64,000 nt of DNA from a bacterium (GTDB lineage: Bacteria; Patescibacteriota; UBA1384; VFKW01), in contig JAUSIS010000006.1 in the NCBI GenBank assembly GCA_030647355.1, forward strand, positions 26,221 through 90,220, in the 5' to 3' direction. The notes under the pieces were generated by a model, which saw only the letters and a program-made list of their open reading frames with translations, had not been told where the DNA came from and searched no databases. The position numbers were made by a program, and so were the translations under genes. This document shows, in pieces, positions 21,397-39,549 of this stretch; position 1 is the stretch's first letter; each line of letters begins with the position of its first letter.

Positions 21397-21470
21397 TCGG
21401 GGCAGGCAGACTTGAACTGCCGACCTCTGGACCCCCAGCCCAGCGCACTAGCCAACTGTGCTATGCCCCG
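21397..21470 (-). tRNA. tRNA-Pro (anticodon GGG)
   Basis: Manual cloverleaf on the minus strand: acceptor CGGGGCA/TGCCCCG, D stem GCAC/GTGC, anticodon stem CTGGG/TCCAG, loop CUGGGGG, T stem GGCAG/CTGCC, T loop TTCAAGT. 74 nt, no encoded CCA. Confidence 0.8.
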
Positions 21471-24874: not shown

Positions 24875-24946
24875 GCCGCCTTAGCTCAGTGGTAGAGCAA
24901 CACTTTTGTAAAGTGAAGGTCCCGAGTCCGAATCTCGGAGGCGGCT
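24875..24946 (+). tRNA. tRNA-Thr (anticodon UGU). T-loop is unusual (TCCGAAT, C at position 55).
   Basis: Manual cloverleaf: acceptor GCCGCCT/AGGCGGC, D stem GCTC/GAGC, anticodon loop UUUGUAA, T stem CCGAG/CTCGG. Confidence 0.7.
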
Positions 24947-24962
24947 CTGAAAGGTGAGGGAT

Positions 24963-25001
24963 AAAGTGAAGGTCCCGAGTTCGAACCCCGGAGGCGGCTC
25001 T
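24963..25001 (+). pseudogene. 3' fragment (anticodon 3' strand, variable and T arms, acceptor 3' strand) of a second tRNA-Thr copy, with canonical TTCGAAC T-loop
   Basis: AAAGTGAAGGTCCCGAGTTCGAACCCCGGAGGCGGCTCT, preceded by GGTGAGGG, the inverted partner of the CCCTCACC that follows the 5' fragment. Confidence 0.7.
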
Positions 25002-25169
25002 GGTGAGGGGTAAATAGTAGATCGTAGGTTCAAATATTTCCATTGTCTTTGCTGATGAGATTATAGGGTTCAAGTCGCTTCTTTCGGCTTAAAATCGTAA
25101 ATTGAAGCCAACAGCGAACCAATTAACTGAGTATTGTTGTATGTTCGCTATTGGCAGTAGCTTAAGATA

Positions 25170-25253
25170 GCCGGGGTGGCGGAGCGGTCAATCGCACCTG
25201 ACTGTAAATCAGGCGGCCTAGTGTCTACGGGAGTTCGAATCTCTCCCCCGGCA
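25170..25253 (+). tRNA. tRNA-Tyr (anticodon GUA), long variable arm
   Basis: Acceptor GCCGGGG/CCCCGGC, D stem GGCG/TCGC, anticodon stem CCTGA/TCAGG, loop CUGUAAA, long variable arm, T loop TTCGAAT, discriminator A. Confidence 0.8.
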
Positions 25254-25295
25254 CCGGAAGTGAGTTGCAGCTTATACTCTAACTCATTGATTTTT

Positions 25296-25368
25296 GCCGA
25301 TGTAGCTCAGTTGGTAGAGCAACTCCATGGTAAGGAGTAGGTCACCGGTTCAAATCCGGTCATCGGCT
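25296..25368 (+). tRNA. tRNA-Thr (anticodon GGU)
   Basis: Acceptor GCCGATG/CATCGGC, D stem GCTC/GAGC, anticodon stem ACTCC/GGAGT, loop AUGGUAA, T stem ACCGG/CCGGT, T loop TTCAAAT. Confidence 0.8.
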
Positions 25369-25436
25369 CAAAGTTATTGACATAACTTTACTAAAACACC
25401 AGAGTTAATGATGATTGAGGAGAATAATGGCTAAAA

Positions 25437-25591
25437 AAGAAAAAAGACAATTAATTACCTTGGCCTGTAGTAAGTGTCACGCAAGAAATTATCACACAGA
25501 AAAGAGCGTCTTGAATACCGTAGAGAGATTAGAAGTGAGTAAGTATTGCAGTAAGTGCCGTAGTCATGCGATGCATAAAGAGGCTAAGTAG
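25437..25591 (+). CDS. rpmG: 50S ribosomal protein L33
   Basis: 51-aa ORF missing from the supplied track (MAKKEKRQLITLACSKCHARNYHTEKS...HAMHKEAK). C4 zinc-ribbon form of bL33. RBS GAGGAGAATA. Classical position immediately upstream of tRNA-Trp. Confidence 0.75.
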
Positions 25592-25598
25592 GAGCAAT

Positions 25599-25673
25599 GG
25601 GGGCATAGTACAACGGTTAGTATGGCGGTCTCCAAAACCGCAGATTGAGGTTCGATTCCTCATGCCCCTGCCA
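25599..25673 (+). tRNA. tRNA-Trp (anticodon CCA), 3' CCA encoded
   Basis: Acceptor GGGGGCA/TGCCCCT (G1-U72), anticodon stem GCGGT/ACCGC, loop CUCCAAA, T stem TGAGG/CCTCA, T loop TTCGATT, then G + CCA. Confidence 0.75.
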
Positions 25674-25880: not shown

Positions 25881-26522
25881 ATGTTAAATGGCGAAACAGT
25901 TGCGCCTGTATCTGCTGGTAGTGCGAGTGCAGAGAACGGTGTAAAAGAAGTGTCCTCAAATCAAGAAGAAGCGAAGCAAGAAGATAAATCACCCGAAATT
26001 CAGTCAGTTAAAGTTACATCTGTTGGTTCTTTAGGCGCACTTGTATTGATTGCTACAGTGATCGCTCTTTTAGGAACGGGCGCATTATTTTTATATAAAA
26101 CTTCCAGAGCCAGTAAGTTGGTTCAAGAAGAGAAAAATTATAAGACGATTTCTGACCAGCTTAACTCGGCGGACTTAAAAAAACTTGCCGCTAATCTTCA
26201 AGAAGTTCAGCAAGGTCAAGAAAGTTTGACGACCGCTTTAAATCAGAAAGTATATTGGTCAAAGTTTTGGACTGTTTTGAGTAGCGTTACTCCAACAGCT
26301 GTTTATTATAATTCTCTTTCTATGGATTCAAATGGAGTAGTATCTTTAACGGGTTCGGCAAGTGATCTGTCAAGTATAGCTAAATTTATGGTTAGCCTGA
26401 AGAAATCTCCGGTTTTCAAAGATATTAAATTGGGGAATACATCAGTGAGAGAGAGTGGTGGGACGGTCAGCACGTTATTTTCGGCAACTTTTACTGTTAA
26501 TGCGGAAGAATTAAAAAAATAA
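25881..26522 (+). CDS. pilN: Type IV pilus assembly protein PilN-like (bitopic)
   Basis: Cytoplasmic N-terminus, single TM (LGALVLIATVIALLGTGALFLY), coiled coil, periplasmic domain. RBS AGGAGGGG. First gene of the pil locus. Confidence 0.55.
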   Translation: MLNGETVAPVSAGSASAENGVKEVSSNQEEAKQEDKSPEIQSVKVTSVGSLGALVLIATVIALLGTGALFLYKTSRASKLVQEEKNYKTISDQLNSADLKKLAANLQEVQQGQESLTTALNQKVYWSKFWTVLSSVTPTAVYYNSLSMDSNGVVSLTGSASDLSSIAKFMVSLKKSPVFKDIKLGNTSVRESGGTVSTLFSATFTVNAEELKK

Positions 26523-32445: not shown

Positions 32446-32856
32446 ATGACGACGGAAGATAAAAAAGAGATAGTAGAAATAGTAGGGAATGTGGTAGAGG
32501 AGAAAGTTTTCCCTCGTTTTGACGAACAAGAAAAAAGAATGGTGAAGCTGTTTGTGCAGGCGGAAAAAAATACTGATAGGAAGATTGATGAATTGGCGAT
32601 AATGATGAATGGTCAATTTCAGAAGATAGATGAAAGGTTTGGCAACTTAGAAAACAGAATGGAAGGTATGGAAGGTAGGATGGAAGGTATGGAAGGTAGG
32701 ATGAGTGGTATAGAAGGTAGGATGAGTGGCTTGGAAGAAAGAATGGATCGGATTGAGAGAAAATTGGATGCGGAGATTGAAAGACATGATAGATTGTCGG
32801 TGAAGTCGGAAGATCACGGGAAGAGGATAGGAGTTTTGGAGGTAGCTGGGAGTTAA
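32446..32856 (+). CDS. Coiled-coil protein encoded partly by tandem 15-nt repeats (MEGMEGR..)
   Basis: Residues 60-100 are (M/I)EG(R/M)M repeats, encoded by tandem DNA repeats at 32653-32745. Helical, with no catalytic motifs. Confidence 0.4.
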   Translation: MTTEDKKEIVEIVGNVVEEKVFPRFDEQEKRMVKLFVQAEKNTDRKIDELAIMMNGQFQKIDERFGNLENRMEGMEGRMEGMEGRMSGIEGRMSGLEERMDRIERKLDAEIERHDRLSVKSEDHGKRIGVLEVAGS

Positions 32857-33752: not shown

Positions 33753-33769
33753 GTGTAGGGGAGGGGATT

Positions 33770-34110
33770 GCTTTGTCGCTTCGCTCCTCGCAATGACAGA
33801 GAACTGCTGTTCGCAGTGACACGGAAAGTGGAGAAGATTGCCGCGCTTCGCTCGCAATGACAGGAAAGTAAGATTGCCGCGCTACGCTCGCAATGACAGA
33901 AGGGAGATTGCTTCGGACGACACTCGCAATGACAAAGGAAGCTTCTCGCAATGACAAAGGAGAGATTGCTTCGGACGACGCTCGCAATGACACGGAAAGT
34001 GGAGAAGATTGCCGCGCTGCGCTCGTAATGACATAAGCACACTCGCGATGTTCGTCAGAAAGATTGCTTCGTCGCTACGCTCCTCGCAATGACACGGAAA
34101 AAACGCTGGT
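33770..34110. repeat. Cluster of ~7 hairpin repeat units (GATTGC-N12-17-GCAATGACA), the last one a long perfect palindrome
   Basis: Repeated GATTGCCGCGCT(T/A)CGCTCGCAATGACA and GATTGCTTCGGACGAC(A/G)CTCGCAATGACA units separated by 6-12 nt. 34067-34130 forms a ~28-bp inverted repeat. Confidence 0.85.
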
Positions 34111-34148
34111 CATTGCGAGCGAACAGCGAAGCAATCTATAATGGAAAT

Positions 34149-34445
34149 ATGAAAGATAAAAATTATTACGTATATTTTATGATGAATTTCAGTAATACGG
34201 TTATTTATGTGGGAGTAACTAATGATTTAGCGAGAAGAGTTTACGAGCACAAAAATAAGCTTATTGATGGGTTTACTAAAAAATATAATGTAAATAAACT
34301 TGTGTATTATGAAGAGTATGATGATCCGCTGATCGCAATCGCCAGAGAAAAACAGATAAAAGCTGGATCGAGGGATAAAAAGATGAGGTTGATTGCGAAA
34401 GATAATCCAAGGTTTGAAGATTTGTACGATGGTTTGTTTGGTTGA
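34149..34445 (+). CDS. GIY-YIG domain nuclease family protein (~98 aa)
   Basis: YYVYFMMNFSNTVIYVGVTNDLARRVYEHK is a canonical GIY-YIG core. The ORF opens at 34089 inside the repeat; the Met at 34149 is the likely start. Flanked on both sides by the hairpin repeats. Confidence 0.8.
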   Translation: MKDKNYYVYFMMNFSNTVIYVGVTNDLARRVYEHKNKLIDGFTKKYNVNKLVYYEEYDDPLIAIAREKQIKAGSRDKKMRLIAKDNPRFEDLYDGLFG

Positions 34446-34446
34446 G

Positions 34447-34605
34447 AAAGAAGATTGCCGCGCTTCGCTCGCAATGACAGAGGGGAGATTGCTTCGGACG
34501 ACACTCGCAATGACAAAGGAAGCTTCTCGCAATGACAAAGGAGAGATTGCTTCGGACGACACTCGCAATGACAGAAATAGTGCTTGCGATGACGAAGGAA
34601 AGGTA
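34447..34605. repeat. Second cluster of GATTGC..GCAATGACA hairpin repeats (4-5 units)
   Basis: Same units as 33770-34110, starting immediately after the GIY-YIG stop codon. Confidence 0.85.
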
Positions 34606-34664
34606 TTATTTGGAAATTTTGTTAATTCTAGGATATAATAGATTTAAGTAGTAAGGAGCGGATT

Positions 34665-35465
34665 ATGACAATTTTGATAGTGTTTATCTTTGGGTTAATG
34701 GTAGGATCTTTTTTAAATGTGGTGATACTGCGCATGGATGAGCTGGAGACTATTGTAAATACCCGATCTCACTGCCCGAAGTGTAAAAAAGATTTGTCTT
34801 GGTATGATCTGGTGCCTCTCTTGAGTTTTTTGTTGCTTCGGACGCGGTGCCGATATTGTAAGGAAAAAATTTCTTTGCAATATCCCTTGGTTGAACTGGG
34901 GACGGCTCTGGGCTTTGCGGCAGTATATCAATTTGTAGTGAACCAAGGGATTGGATTCGAGTGGCAGGTAATCAGTTTGATATTTTATCTTCTGATAGTA
35001 TCTTTTTTGGTGGTATTGTTTGTTTATGATCTTAGGAAATATTTGGTACCGGATGAGATCGTTTGGCCGGCAATTATCTTAACGGTTATTTTTCAAGTAT
35101 TGGCAATTCAATTCATACCGGATTACAGATTGAACTGGATGGATTTGCTATTGGGAGGATTAATCGGCGCTGGAGTGCCGGCATTACTTTCTATTCCGTC
35201 TAAAGGGAAATGGATGGGGTATGGCGACATCGCGATCGGAGCGCTTTTAGGGCTGGTGCTCGGTTATCCGCTAGCGATAGTAGGGCTTTTTATGGCGTTT
35301 TGTGCTGGCGGCTTGGTCGGAGTTGTGTTGATATTGGCAGGGTATAAGAAATTGACTTCGGCGGTGCCTTTCGGTCCTTTTTTAACCGCAGGAACTTTTG
35401 CTGCCTTGCTTTATGGGGAAAGAATACTTAATTGGTATCTGGGTTTTTTCGGACTTCGTTATTAG
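34665..35465 (+). CDS. pilD: Prepilin peptidase (A24 family) PilD
   Basis: N-terminal CxxC..CxxC zinc-binding region (CPKCKK..CRYCKE). Polytopic membrane protein with catalytic-Asp context (YDLRKYLVPDE, GYGDIAIGALLG). Confidence 0.85.
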   Translation: MTILIVFIFGLMVGSFLNVVILRMDELETIVNTRSHCPKCKKDLSWYDLVPLLSFLLLRTRCRYCKEKISLQYPLVELGTALGFAAVYQFVVNQGIGFEWQVISLIFYLLIVSFLVVLFVYDLRKYLVPDEIVWPAIILTVIFQVLAIQFIPDYRLNWMDLLLGGLIGAGVPALLSIPSKGKWMGYGDIAIGALLGLVLGYPLAIVGLFMAFCAGGLVGVVLILAGYKKLTSAVPFGPFLTAGTFAALLYGERILNWYLGFFGLRY

Positions 35466-35590
35466 AGGTTACTTCTCGACTTTGCTCAAAGAATAATGCC
35501 AGGCAGTAAGAAATAAACTGGGACAGGGAAAGATTGCCACGCTACGCTCGCAATGACACAGAAATAGTACTCGCAATGACAAGGAGGGGA
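35466..35590. repeat. Composite intergenic repeat: ACTTCTCGAC.. motif + GCAGTAAGAAATAAACTG motif + two GATTGC..GCAATGACA hairpin units
   Basis: Each module recurs elsewhere in the window (31140-31300, 49424-49460, 33770-34110). Confidence 0.7.
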
Positions 35591-35643
35591 TATACAAGCT
35601 TTGGTGGGTTATGTTATGATAGAGAAAAGTGAGCGGAGGGGAA

Positions 35644-36204
35644 GTGAGAGCTCGAAAAAGTAAATTTGGTTTTACCTTGATTGAATTGATGATTACGATC
35701 TCGATTATGGGTATTTTGACAGTCGTGATGATTCCAGCGATTAGGAGTTTTGATAGGCGAAATAAGGTTACATCGGCGGCGGAGCAACTAAAGTCAGCGA
35801 TTCTGGAGGCGAGAAATTATTCAATGTCGCCAAGATTTAGCGATACAAATATTGACCGTTATAGTGTTATGATGGATTTGAGTCAAACTCCGGTTGAGTA
35901 TGAAGTCGGCTATTTTGAAAAGACGACTAATACTTGGCACAGTATTGCACCAAGAAAATTACCTAAAGGTGTTACTGTTGATCAGCGCTATCCTGACGAT
36001 GCTAATCCAAATGATATGGAGATTGGGTTTATGGTTCCTGCTGCTTCGGTCAAGTTTGAGAATTTATTTGATTACACGAACCAAACAACTTGGCCGGCGG
36101 CTAGTGGTATTGGTACGGTGAAGTTATGTGGCGAAAGTGCATCTTGCGGGGATAGTAAAACAGTTAAGATTAACAGTTATACTGGCTTAGTATTGATTGA
36201 ATGA
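35644..36204 (+). CDS. Type IV minor pilin / pseudopilin (FimT/GspH-like)
   Basis: Class III signal peptide VRARKSK|FGFTLIELMITISIMGIL. GTG start at 35644 behind the RBS GGAGGGG (the ORF opens at 35629). Confidence 0.75.
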   Translation: MRARKSKFGFTLIELMITISIMGILTVVMIPAIRSFDRRNKVTSAAEQLKSAILEARNYSMSPRFSDTNIDRYSVMMDLSQTPVEYEVGYFEKTTNTWHSIAPRKLPKGVTVDQRYPDDANPNDMEIGFMVPAASVKFENLFDYTNQTTWPAASGIGTVKLCGESASCGDSKTVKINSYTGLVLIE

Positions 36205-36224
36205 TTGTAATTTAGGGAGAAGGT

Positions 36225-36755
36225 ATGTTAATTGCAAAACATAAGATAGGAAATCACAGAAAAGGGTTTGGCATATTAGAGGTAATGATTGCCAGTATGA
36301 TTTTAGTTACAGTAGTCGGAGCGGTGGTGGCGATGGGGAGTGCCAGTGTGAGGGGTGGGTTGACGGCTTCCGATAAGACAACTGCCTACAATTTGGCGCA
36401 AGAGTGTTTGGAGAAGGCGCGGTCCGTGAGAGATGGCAATTGGGTGGATCAGAACATCCCTACGGCTACAGAGTGGAATACCAATCTAACCACAGCAAAT
36501 TTATCAATGTTAAGCGAATGTAAAACTACCTCGGTGGGTACACCGCAAGTTGAGTATACGAGAGGGGTAGTCGTAACAAATGTGCCGTGGTTTGATCCCA
36601 CTTCGGGAGATCCGCCTCAATATGGTGTTCCACTTCAGGATATCCCCGAAGATATGGTACAACAAATTACTGTAACAGTGAGTTGGTTGGGTGAGAATAG
36701 CAATCAGAGTTTGACGGGCAGCACTTATTTAACCGACTGGAAGATGATCAATTAG
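36225..36755 (+). CDS. Type IV minor pilin PilV-like
   Basis: HRKG|FGILEVMIASMIL is the classical PilV-type N-terminus. ~150-aa globular C-terminal domain. Confidence 0.7.
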   Translation: MLIAKHKIGNHRKGFGILEVMIASMILVTVVGAVVAMGSASVRGGLTASDKTTAYNLAQECLEKARSVRDGNWVDQNIPTATEWNTNLTTANLSMLSECKTTSVGTPQVEYTRGVVVTNVPWFDPTSGDPPQYGVPLQDIPEDMVQQITVTVSWLGENSNQSLTGSTYLTDWKMIN

Positions 36756-36791
36756 GTGACAGGTAACAGGGAACAGGAGACAGGAGAGTAA

Positions 36792-37922
36792 ATGGGTGGG
36801 AATTATAAAGAATTGAGTGTTTGGCAAAAGAGCGTGGAGCTGGTGAATGATGTTTATTTACTGACACGTAAATTTCCTAGTGAAGATAAATTTGGTATTG
36901 CACAGCAGATGGAGAGGGCGTCAGTGTCTATCCCTTCGAATATTGCCGAAGGACATCGTAGACAGCATAAAAATGAGTATGTACAGTTTTTACATATAGC
37001 TTTAGCTTCTGCTTCGGAGTTGGAAACTCAGCTAGAAATATGTAGGAGGTTTGACCATTTGAAGAGTTATAAATTTGAAGCGATTGGTGACCGACTTGAG
37101 GAGATAATAAAAATGTTGCATGGCTTAATAAAAGCAGTTAAATCTACTCATACCTGTGATCTGAAACCTCATGCCTCCAGGGGGTATACCTTGGTGGAGA
37201 TACTGGTTGCGTCCACGATATTTGTCAGCGTGGTTGGAATGGGAATTGCTACGTATTCTTCTGCCAGCGGTTTTCAGTCCAAATCGGCGGTTATTCGAGA
37301 GACCAACCAGGCGGCTCGCTATGCGATGGATACGATTGTCAGAGATATAAGGTTAGCTGATAGTTCGGTTGCTTACACAAAGACCATAGGCCCGGATGAT
37401 TATGTATATACTTTTAAGGGGTTTGCTTTTGAGCAAGCTGGCGGAGGTTTAGATACTACCAATAATTCACTTACACAATATACAGGGATAAAGGTTTATC
37501 GGAAAGGAAGTGGTGATTGCAAGGATTTTGTTCAGGAAGTTTATTATTGGATACAATCAAATACGATATCTCAGCAAATCTCCTATTATAATCATACAAA
37601 CGCGAGTGATAAGGATAGTCCAGCTGATTATAATAGTCCTGTTTCCCTTTTATCTGGTTGCACGGTCTCTTCGGCAGCCATACTGTCCGATAGAGTACAG
37701 CTTAGGGTTGATCCAGTGACCAGTGTTACTCAGGCTTTTTTTCAGGGTCAGTCGGCGTTTGATGTGGAAAAGAATAGCGCTCCGTTTTCGATTGCAAATT
37801 TAGCGCCATACCTCAAAGCATCAATGGATGTAGTGCCGATTCATAGTGCCCTTAGTCCTGGAGAAGAAAGTAGGACCATTCATCTTGAGACGACGGTGAC
37901 ACCGCGATTAGTATCATTTTAA
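36792..37922 (+). CDS. Chimeric ORF: N-terminal four-helix-bundle (TIGR02436 / '23S rRNA intervening-sequence protein') domain fused in frame to a PilW-like minor pilin
   Basis: aa 1-115 (LSVWQKSVELVNDVYLLTRKFPSEDKFGIAQQMERASVSIPSNIAEG..ELETQL) match the four-helix-bundle family. From aa ~125, RG|YTLVEILVASTIFVSVVG is a prepilin N-terminus. An internal Met (MLHGLIKAV.., nt ~37110) could be an alternative pilin start. Confidence 0.6.
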   Translation: MGGNYKELSVWQKSVELVNDVYLLTRKFPSEDKFGIAQQMERASVSIPSNIAEGHRRQHKNEYVQFLHIALASASELETQLEICRRFDHLKSYKFEAIGDRLEEIIKMLHGLIKAVKSTHTCDLKPHASRGYTLVEILVASTIFVSVVGMGIATYSSASGFQSKSAVIRETNQAARYAMDTIVRDIRLADSSVAYTKTIGPDDYVYTFKGFAFEQAGGGLDTTNNSLTQYTGIKVYRKGSGDCKDFVQEVYYWIQSNTISQQISYYNHTNASDKDSPADYNSPVSLLSGCTVSSAAILSDRVQLRVDPVTSVTQAFFQGQSAFDVEKNSAPFSIANLAPYLKASMDVVPIHSALSPGEESRTIHLETTVTPRLVSF

Positions 37923-37924
37923 GT

Positions 37925-38827
37925 TTGGAGCAGACAATGATGTTATTTTTGAAAAGAAAAACCGGTAGTGCGATACTTATTGTGATGCTTTTGATTACAG
38001 TTTTGTCGTCAGTGGCTTTGACTGTTGGTTATTTGGCGATGGCAGAAGTGATGATGGAAACCAATTCCCAAGACGGGATGGTTGCCTACTATGCGGCGGA
38101 AGCGGGGATTGAAGACGGGTTACTCCGGTTTAGATATGATAATAATGTCCAGGTAGGGAGTTTTATCACAGGAGCGGAAAGAGTAGAACGAGTAGATATA
38201 GACGAGACAGATGGGAGTGTGGCTCGGCAACCTATTGTTAATCCGGCTAATTCTCCCGGAGATTCTCTTAGGCAGACATATGACCTGAGGATTAAGTATA
38301 AATCAATTAATGAGGAAGCAATATCTCCGGATATGGACCATTTTGTAAATACTGAGTTAAATAATGATGAGACAGAAAAATTGCTCAAAAAAGACGAATC
38401 ATTGAATGTGTTGGGTTTTGATGTGAATTCCCGACTATATATTAAATTCGTTCGCGATGCCGATGATACTGACCCTATTTGTTCAATAGACCCAACTAAA
38501 TGTTTTATTCAGATTAGAGGGACGAATATAGGGACGGAATTTATTCCTTATTCACAAAGCGACCAATCGGCAACTTCTTATGTTATCAACGCGGGAAGCT
38601 CTGTACTGATTAAATCTTGGGGTATGGATGTCAGGTATGGAATTGCAGCCGAGAGAATCAGCGATTCAAGCGTCATTTCTTTGGATGAAGGTATAACGAC
38701 CATAGAGGCGACTGGGTATTATGGAAGCGCTAAGAGGCGGCTTCAGGCGACTATTGATAGAAAAACAGGGAAATTGCTGGAGATATTTGACTTTACGCTG
38801 AATAGCCAGACAGGGAATATTCAATAG
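37925..38827 (+). CDS. Type IV pilus minor pilin PilX-like
   Basis: N-terminal hydrophobic segment (GSAILIVMLLITVLSSVALTVGYLAMAE) followed by AEAG, as in PilX N-terminal domains. Position after the PilW-like gene. Confidence 0.55.
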   Translation: MEQTMMLFLKRKTGSAILIVMLLITVLSSVALTVGYLAMAEVMMETNSQDGMVAYYAAEAGIEDGLLRFRYDNNVQVGSFITGAERVERVDIDETDGSVARQPIVNPANSPGDSLRQTYDLRIKYKSINEEAISPDMDHFVNTELNNDETEKLLKKDESLNVLGFDVNSRLYIKFVRDADDTDPICSIDPTKCFIQIRGTNIGTEFIPYSQSDQSATSYVINAGSSVLIKSWGMDVRYGIAAERISDSSVISLDEGITTIEATGYYGSAKRRLQATIDRKTGKLLEIFDFTLNSQTGNIQ

Positions 38828-38919
38828 TATCAGGAATATCAAGTATTGGGTGCGTTTCTTCCAGTCATCGCGAGGAATGTAATGACGCGGCGATCTGATG
38901 AGAGGATGATGTATGTAGT

Positions 38920-39110
38920 AGATTGCTTCGTCGCTACGCTCCTCGCAATGACACAGGAAAGTAAGATTGCCGCGCTACGCTCGCAATGACGAAGGAAGCT
39001 CCTCGCAATGACACAGGAAAGTAAGATTGCCGCGCTACGCTCGCAATGACAGGAAAGTAAGATTGCCACGCTTCGCTCGCAATGACACAGGAATGAGCTC
39101 GCAACGACAA
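38920..39110. repeat. Tandem array of ~36-nt GATTGC..GCAATGACA(GGAAAGTAA) hairpin repeats (4-5 units)
   Basis: GATTGCCGCGCTACGCTCGCAATGACAGGAAAGTAA repeated head-to-tail with minor variants. Same family as 33770-34605 and 35530-35590. Confidence 0.85.
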
Positions 39111-39138: not shown

Positions 39139-39549
39139 ATGAAATTGATTGTAAATACTGACGGGGGGGCGAGGGGAAACCCGGGGCCGGCGGGTATTGG
39201 TGTTGTGGTGGAAAGATGTGGTAATATAGTCTATGAAGCGTCTAAGTATATCGGTGAGACGACTAATAACCAGGCAGAATACCGGGCGCTTATTGAAGCT
39301 TTGGAGTGGGTTTCGGAAAATAGAGAGAATGAGGAAGAAGTAGAATGCCGGTTGGATAGTGAACTGGTTGTGAAACAGTTGAATGGCGAGTATAGGTTGA
39401 AAAATGAAGGGCTTAGACCGCTTTATCAGCGGGTGGTAGATTTAAGACAGAAAATCGGCGGAAGAATGATGTTTTGTCATGTGGGACGGGGGGAGAACAA
39501 ACGCGCTGATCGGTTGGTAAATAAAGCGATTGACTTGGCGCTAAAGTGA
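39139..39549 (+). CDS. rnhA: Ribonuclease HI (RNase H type 1), small form
   Basis: DGGARGNPGPAGIG (Asp in beta-1), TNNQAEYRALIEAL (catalytic Glu), C-terminal ..ENKRADRLVN (Asp). 136 aa. Confidence 0.8.
   Translation: MKLIVNTDGGARGNPGPAGIGVVVERCGNIVYEASKYIGETTNNQAEYRALIEALEWVSENRENEEEVECRLDSELVVKQLNGEYRLKNEGLRPLYQRVVDLRQKIGGRMMFCHVGRGENKRADRLVNKAIDLALK

Follow-up and report, generated by a model that had tools for sequence, protein, structure and literature searches.

Inside a type IV pilus locus of a Patescibacteriota bacterium (assembly GCA_030647355.1, contig JAUSIS010000006.1), short hairpin repeats are gathered around a small gene that encodes a GIY-YIG nuclease. The window analysed here is the whole 64,000-nt stretch from position 26,221 to 90,220 of this contig, and all coordinates below refer to it. 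Do the repeats and the nuclease form one system, and if so, of which kind? A preliminary description had proposed a mobile nuclease with its target repeats or, alternatively, a family of miniature inverted-repeat transposable elements (MITEs) using the nuclease. We suggest, with a probability of about 85% and judging from sequence, that the region consists of an Ssn-type nuclease gene (34149-34445) and its cognate hairpin repeats, the Ssn-related motifs (SRM). A system of this kind is already described; new are the stem variant, the host groups and the arrays in a pilus locus.

The reference for this reading is SsnA of Neisseria meningitidis (CAX49033.1), a 94-aa single-domain GIY-YIG protein (CDD cd10448) whose target is the repeat NTS (CGTCATTCCCGCGMAVGCGGGAATCYRG). 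Binding requires the single-stranded form (ssDNA) and is limited to one of the two strands, and the cut falls a few nucleotides 5' of the motif (Chenal et al., Nat Commun 2025, PMC11893778). Cutting depends on the three bases immediately before the palindrome and binding on the C that follows it, while the hairpin loop has no bearing on SsnA, which tolerates its extension or splitting. The characterised homologs come from Neisseria and Wolbachia, and these enzymes act neither on double-stranded DNA (dsDNA) or RNA nor on the opposite strand. SRM flank the homolog genes, and many divergent enzyme-motif pairs are expected by the authors, who compared the NTS-ssnA-NTS layout to insertion sequences and to repetitive extragenic palindromes (REP) and bacterial interspersed mosaic elements (BIME). 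In Neisseria, the nuclease and its repeats restrict transformation by motif-carrying DNA at surface-protein loci (PMC11893778).

The window gene encodes a 98-aa protein in which no domain beyond PF01541 is detected. In an alignment of 32 homologs, including the window protein, Y9 is nearly invariant and Y20, R30 and E67 are invariant, and the catalytic Tyr, Tyr and Glu of SsnA (Y6, Y17 and E64) have counterparts in the window protein. With a PF01541 match at E 2e-15 and these residues conserved, the open reading frame (ORF) is intact and not a pseudogene. Its AlphaFold2 model is compact (pLDDT 92), and the nearest solved folds are UPF0213 (1ZG2), Slx1 and UvrC-N. More than 8000 homologs exist, the best 120 of them at 61-73% identity, and their hosts include Omnitrophota, Patescibacteria, Ignavibacteriota, Bacteroidota and cyanobacteria. 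The earlier assignment to homing endonucleases or Slx1-like nucleases was imprecise, as the protein is a single-domain enzyme, probably of the Ssn kind. The start of the ORF had also been placed inside a repeat; this is true of the mechanical ORF (34089-34445), while the alignment of 31 homologs puts the real start at 34149.

The repeat pattern given in the preliminary description is real: GATTGC-N10-20-GCAATGAC has 15 exact matches in the window, where 0.02 are expected. These span 33766-39086, 14 on the forward strand and one (34109-34136) on the reverse strand. Allowing up to one mismatch, 22 copies of the tail TCGCAATGACA are present, compared with an expectation of 1.2. In total there are 15 units with an ATTGC stem, one with an ATCGC stem, one degenerate unit and seven tail-only half units, and all 16 full units carry the tags GTC (5') and C (3'). 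The units are confined to four intergenic spacers (33766-34136, 34453-34593, 35532-35580 and 38864-39108), which is where the four clusters had been located, and the full inventory holds zero hairpin units in the remaining ~58 kb. The pseudo-peptides LSCHCERSAAI, VIASEARQS and ASLAMT were likewise found in spurious ORFs, as described.

The description of each unit as a small hairpin holds for the 5-bp stem and its covariation, see below, but not for folding energy, as single window units are no more stable than shuffled sequences (z -0.9 to +0.6). The "28-bp palindrome" reported at 34067-34130 is in fact two opposed units, 34062-34093 on the forward and 34109-34136 on the reverse strand. This pair has perfect arms of 11 and 10 bp around a non-matching centre, folds with -23.3 kcal/mol (z -5.3) and is the sole strong structure among the window units.

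On either side of the gene, an inverted hairpin repeat is found at most 500 bp away. The units 34109-34136 (reverse) and 34453-34478 (forward) bound a repeat-gene-repeat module of 370 bp, with inverted arms of 20 nt that are 90% complementary.

The repeat-gene module across genomes

Homolog loci reveal that this arrangement is not peculiar to the window. Through an alignment of 32 relatives, 80 loci from more than 15 phyla were retrieved from contigs representing one genome per species, and the core 9-mer CGCAATGAC was searched within 400 bp of each gene. Of the 80 loci, 62 have a core on at least one flank and 56 on both; 17 contain no cores in up to ~20 kb other than the two beside the gene. 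Near the gene, the density of cores is 5-9 per kb, with 7-9 per kb at 0-60 bp, and it falls to 0.03-0.06 per kb at 3-10 kb. The control, 80 unselected pilus loci (535 kb) obtained with a prepilin-peptidase query, contains four cores, which is chance level. That query returned only relatives of at most 47% identity, and no close relative of the locus turned up. The repeat is thus strongly enriched around GIY-YIG genes elsewhere, as expected for a nuclease with target repeats or a MITE-like family, and the link between repeat and gene is specific.

The usual order is an inverted unit, the gene and a direct unit, as in the window. The canonical 5' part reads GTCATTGCGAG-centre-CGWRGCAATCT, followed by a variable spacer (median ~14 nt) and the ATG, and the canonical 3' part is a stop codon abutting GATTGCYWCG-centre-CTCGCAATGAC; the stop codon often abuts GATTGC in the homolog loci. 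Among 36 clean cases the module is 363-579 bp long (median 401), and conservation falls to background exactly outside GTCATTGCGAG and CTCGCAATGAC, i.e., just beyond both outer ends. In some modules (L161, L163), the inverted ends match perfectly over 33 bp, variable centre included.

Gaps between head-to-head units are bimodal. Sixty pairs lie less than 40 nt apart, as gene-less doublets (e.g., L174), and 42 are separated by 250-480 nt with the gene inside. Tail-to-tail pairs almost never enclose a gene, with two pairs at 250-480 nt. The gene-less units form head-to-head doublets and tandem arrays.

Two loci in one Gastranaerophilales metagenome-assembled genome (MAG), L149 and L154, are mutually closest relatives. 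They share a 373-bp block of 79% nucleotide identity that ends at the units, and the whole module is duplicated within this genome. In another pair, from a Bacteroidetes MAG (L092) and an Ignavibacteriaceae MAG (L126), the module occupies the same syntenic position with similar flanks on both sides, which suggests that it has been vertically inherited at that site for some time. In L015 and L037, a tail-only half unit is fully complementary to the beginning of the inverted unit that follows (GCACCTCGCAATGAC..GTCATTGCGAGGTGC), so that half units may act as alternative 5' halves of a shared hairpin.

The stem varies between lineages in a paired manner. Loci without the TTGC core have complementary alternative stems, namely ATTTC/GAAAT, ATTCC/GGAAT, ATCCC/GGGAT, ATCCT/AGGAT, ATCTC/GAGAT and ACCCC/GGGGT. 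When the three inner stem positions were left free in a scan, TGC/GCA gave 605 hits, and the other multi-copy classes are all fully complementary (TTC/GAA, TCC/GGA, TCT/AGA, CTC/GAG, CCT/AGG, TAC/GTA and others). There are 1563 matches in which neither side is of the TGC type, and 177 of them are complementary throughout the three free positions, compared with 1.6% expected. The support for the stem thus comes from covariation across lineages and not from energy. The centres are 10-66 nt long with peaks at 12 and 18, and those of at least 14 nt fold 2.6 kcal/mol better than their shuffled versions. In 166 sources, ~90% of the ATTGC..GCAAT hairpins show the expected pattern of C or G next to the stem, and the asymmetric tags GTC (5') and C (3') are conserved in ~90% of such hairpins. 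Proteins whose genes go with TTC, TCC, CTC or TCT stems form one cluster regardless of host phylum; protein clades go with the stem type and not with the host.

The connection to the characterised family was approached through 120 stretches with an exact NTS core, whose flanked genes served as a proxy for SsnA. Three of them carry a flanked GIY-YIG gene, whose product is 40-46% identical to the window protein. The closest, from L282, aligns over aa 3-92 (46% identity, E 1e-27), and its gene is preceded by TTGTCATTCCCGCGAAGGCGGGAATCCAG, which equals the NTS consensus except for the first base.

Proposed function and rival explanations

By analogy with the characterised homologs, the 94-98-aa protein would bind the strand 5'-GTC-stem-centre-stem-C only when this is single-stranded and folded, and would nick a few nucleotides 5' of the motif; dsDNA, RNA and the opposite strand would be left alone. 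The centre of the hairpin would be irrelevant and could be lengthened, which fits the variable centres of 10-66 nt found here. The strand that reads GTC..C, and is predicted to be bindable, is the reverse strand for 14 of the 15 ATTGC units and the forward strand for the unit just 5' of the gene; the ATCGC unit (38864-38895) also reads GTC..C on the forward strand. In the window, the cuts in motif-carrying ssDNA would probably fall next to the genes for pilin, prepilin peptidase and minor pilins. The substrate may be incoming transforming DNA, possibly also replication or repair intermediates. By extension from N. meningitidis, such cuts might make recombination at the pilus genes less frequent or change its pattern, and the arrays around these genes do echo the limit on transformation at surface-protein loci in Neisseria.

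Several observations weigh against the assignment to Ssn. The published SRM string, HGTCWYN(0-2)YYVSBRHN(0-5)WNVSBRGN(0-2)RNCYNB, has no match in the window and none within 500 bp of 81 genes of the clade, so that this motif definition misses the whole clade (0 of 81 genes detected). The string does match the NTS consensus, and it is a search aid built from 29 genomes and not a definition. Where NTS has a 9-bp stem, the units here combine a short outer stem with a conserved internal loop (GAG/CGWR) and a variable centre. A homolog gene is present in none of 85 IMG/VR stretches with tandem units of the ATTGC type (GC 38-68%), and only the three mentioned above of the 120 NTS-selected stretches have one. 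Arrays can therefore exist without the gene next to them, and the enzyme, if it acts on the 85 IMG/VR stretches, acts there in trans; the rarity of the gene near loci selected by repeat is compatible with such a trans-acting enzyme. Finally, the units elsewhere have no orientation bias relative to neighbouring genes (47 vs 41, p 0.59), so the same-strand layout of the window is not general.

A wider proposal can also be made, which we consider unlikely. The ATTGC units and their nucleases would be a large uncharted branch of Ssn in more than 15 phyla, including Patescibacteria-like genomes, with a hairpin grammar of its own (5-bp stem, GAG/CGWR internal loop, centre insertions up to 66 nt) that is invisible to the published string. 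The module of ~370-400 bp may then be an autonomous mobile element, among the smallest known, and the arrays may mark type IV pilus or competence loci, where they would control uptake-driven recombination. At a more practical level, GTC-ATTGC..GCAAT-C is a candidate enzyme-motif pair for a nuclease family under development as an ssDNA tool. The units also explain a class of spurious ORFs, as in the window; peptides like ...SLAMT or CHCERS... are common in MAG annotations.

A rival that does not exclude the Ssn assignment is a selfish, still active mini-transposon, in which the ~370-400-bp module is autonomous, the nuclease cuts both ends, and the gene-less doublets and arrays are MITE-like non-autonomous derivatives without host function. 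Mobility of the module is suggested by its sharp ends, the one duplicated copy and the patchy phyletic spread. The terminal inverted repeats of some modules, perfect over 33 bp and through the variable centre, the 60 gene-less doublets, the paralogs of one MAG with homology limited to the module, and a protein identity of 55-68% over more than 15 phyla that does not follow taxonomy all fit this idea, and a resemblance to insertion sequences was noted in the Ssn paper (PMC11893778). However, neither strand transfer nor ligation is known for a GIY-YIG nuclease of 98 aa, and to our knowledge no transposition chemistry has been described for the GIY-YIG fold. Direct tandem arrays and half units are unlike cut-and-paste MITEs, and at 79% nucleotide identity the paralogs give no sign of recent movement. 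Presence/absence polymorphism was not found, with the closest relative of the locus at 47% identity, and inspection of the homolog flanks by eye showed no target-site duplications, for which no systematic test was made. We think an active transposon somewhat unlikely.

Three further rivals were weighed. That the units are REP-like host elements (terminators, mRNA stabilisers or protein-binding sites), into whose palindromes a GIY-YIG gene merely inserts, would agree with their strictly intergenic position in the window and with the loci selected by repeat, which mostly lack the gene (0 of 85); some insertion sequences are known to target REP sequences. Yet stem type and protein clade co-vary, many loci have just the two flanking units in up to ~20 kb, and the GTC and C tags coincide exactly with the bases on which the characterised enzyme depends for cutting and binding. 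Single units are also too unstable for terminators and no T-run follows them, and their orientation relative to genes is unbiased, which together makes this explanation very unlikely. Still less probable is a classical homing endonuclease, which would cut double-stranded gene-less doublets and copy itself in by repair. It would account for the GIY-YIG fold and for a gene that always lies between head-to-head units, with the gene-less doublets as empty sites, but the 98-aa single domain has no DNA-binding extension, and characterised homologs do not touch dsDNA (PMC11893778). A homing endonuclease was also rejected as an identity for the protein, as DNA-binding modules (NUMOD etc.) are absent and the protein scores 18.6 bits with TIGR01453, the model for group I intron endonucleases, where the cut-off is 56. 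The regular repeats, the short spacers and the strand-asymmetric, purine-rich 3' flank could also be read as a set of small structured RNAs or as something like a CRISPR array, which is hardly credible: Rfam has no match at the gathering threshold or with E up to 5, and characterised Ssn enzymes do not bind RNA (PMC11893778). A CRISPR array needs unique spacers of at least 25 nt and cas genes, while the spacers here are 8-25 nt, purine-rich and themselves repeated, no cas genes were seen in the locus and the neighbours are pilus genes; the preliminary description was right to reject it.

The pilus locus and its other features

The module stands in a type IV pilus locus with PilB-like, PilT-like and PilC-like genes, pilin, prepilin peptidase and minor pilins. 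PADLOC gave no match to a defence system. The positions of the repeats and of the nuclease gene are collected in Table 1.

Table 1. Repeat units, arrays and nuclease gene in the window.
Feature	Position	Strand	Basis or content
Array upstream of module	33766-34093	+	exact pattern and tail inventory
Full units, upstream array	33766-33797, 33836-33861, 33872-33897, 33906-33933, 33964-33991, 34062-34093	+	
Half units, upstream array	33810-33820, 33945-33955		
Degenerate unit, upstream array	34007-34032		
132-nt composite block, copy 1	33870-34001	+	
Unit 5' of ssn-like gene	34109-34136	-	GTCATTGCGAG..CGAAGCAATC on + strand
ssn-like gene, 98-aa single-domain GIY-YIG nuclease	34149-34445	+	PF01541 E 2e-15, aa 5-78
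132-nt composite block, copy 2	34451-34582	+	
Unit 3' of ssn-like gene	34453-34478	+	exact pattern
Array downstream of module	34487-34593	+	full 34487-34514, 34545-34572; half 34526-34536, 34583-34593
Small cluster in spacer between prepilin peptidase gene and minor-pilin genes	35532-35580	+	full 35532-35557; half 35570-35580
ATCGC/GCGAT-stem unit, compensatory variant	38864-38895	-	inventory
Array 3' of minor-pilin genes	38921-39108	+	full 38921-38952, 38965-38990, 39025-39050, 39061-39086
Half units, array 3' of minor-pilin genes	39002-39012, 39098-39108		

Segmental duplication is visible among the repeats. The two 132-nt blocks form a direct repeat of 95% identity, 581 nt apart, with the nuclease gene in between. 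If the copies recombined, the gene would be removed and one array left. The spacers of the upstream array are rich in purines. The ATCGC unit stands head to head with the next unit across 25 nt and forms with it a gene-less doublet, of a kind common elsewhere.

An exact TATAAT at 34137-34142, right after the upstream unit and 6 nt ahead of the ATG, suggests a leaderless transcript. With at most one mismatch, TATAAT occurs between the upstream unit and the start in 26 of 43 homolog genes, compared with 50% in shuffled controls, and is not enriched.

Some other features of the locus are described here in their own right. About five copies of a heptamer, AGGNGAC/AGGTAAC, are found at 36754-36787; they look like the purine-rich GACAGG spacers of the hairpin arrays, and a stem is absent. 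They lie directly upstream of the ORF 36792-37922 (forward strand), which begins with a four-helix-bundle domain of the 23S rRNA intervening sequence protein/bAvd-like type (PF05635, aa 6-111, E 1e-37). This domain is in frame with a pilin-like protein with no stop codon in between, and the pilin-like part has an N-methylation motif at aa 128-150 (..SRG|YTLVEILVAS). Either a small, selfish-looking gene has been placed ahead of a minor-pilin gene, or translation of the pilin begins within the ORF, at the ATG at 37114. An RNase H-like gene (39139-39549, forward strand; PF13456 RVT_3 E 8e-15, PF00075 E 7e-13) also belongs to the pilus locus and begins 30 nt past the final half unit. A small coiled-coil protein is encoded at 32446-32856 (forward strand), flanked by the genes for the PilC-like protein and the pilin. 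It has tandem MEGR(M/S)GIEGR repeats (32659-32737; 3.5 copies with a 21-nt period) and a weak DUF7310 match below the Pfam cut-off. Four tRNA genes on the forward strand (24875-25670) and another on the reverse strand (21397-21470) are unrelated to the repeats and the nuclease.

Comparison with known systems

The closest known system is Ssn/SRM. In both, a single-domain GIY-YIG protein of ~95 aa (98 aa in the window) is encoded between inverted hairpin repeats, the unit follows the grammar GTC, palindromic stem, free centre, stem and C, the repeats gather in intergenic DNA around surface or pilus genes, and enzyme and motif co-vary. However, the stem is ATTGC here and ATTCCCGCG in NTS. The outer stem of the units measures only 5 bp, their internal loop is conserved, and the variable centre spans 10-66 nt. 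Most hosts belong to groups other than Pseudomonadati (Patescibacteria, Omnitrophota, Chloroflexota, cyanobacteria and Bacteroidota), and the tandem arrays found here have no mention in the text of the Ssn paper, where the word 'tandem' does not occur.

Structurally, the minimal GIY-YIG domains of UPF0213 (YhbQ, BH0048; PDB 1ZG2) and of eukaryotic Slx1 are the closest solved folds, but the identity is only 19-26% and cognate repeats are described for neither. Slx1 also has a C-terminal RING finger domain and the partner Slx4. As the window protein ends at residue 98 and the RING finger domain is absent, an identity as Slx1 was rejected and the likeness is one of fold only. A 2006 survey of GIY-YIG proteins regards the minimal bacterial ones as repair enzymes inherited vertically. 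Homing endonucleases join the nuclease domain to DNA-binding modules and usually reside in introns or phages. Literature searches for the repeat strings, the pseudo-peptides, or GIY-YIG together with MITE, REP, RAYT or YhbQ returned nothing relevant.

In its layout, the module also resembles REP/BIME with REP-associated tyrosine transposases (RAYT), i.e., REPtrons and REPINs. There too, a small nuclease gene lies between inverted short hairpin repeats, many gene-less copies exist as singlets, inverted doublets and clusters, and a single-stranded hairpin is recognised with a directional tag next to the stem. In REPtrons the flanked enzyme is a Y1 HUH (IS200-like) transposase and the tag is GTAG or CGTC, whereas here the enzyme is a GIY-YIG nuclease and the tag GTC..C, so that the likeness is an analogy only. 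A RAYT gene was not noticed in the locus, although no search aimed at RAYT was made. IS200/IS605 elements are likewise very small, with hairpin ends recognised as ssDNA. In contrast to them, the module described here has no TnpA, and its two hairpins face each other on opposite strands.

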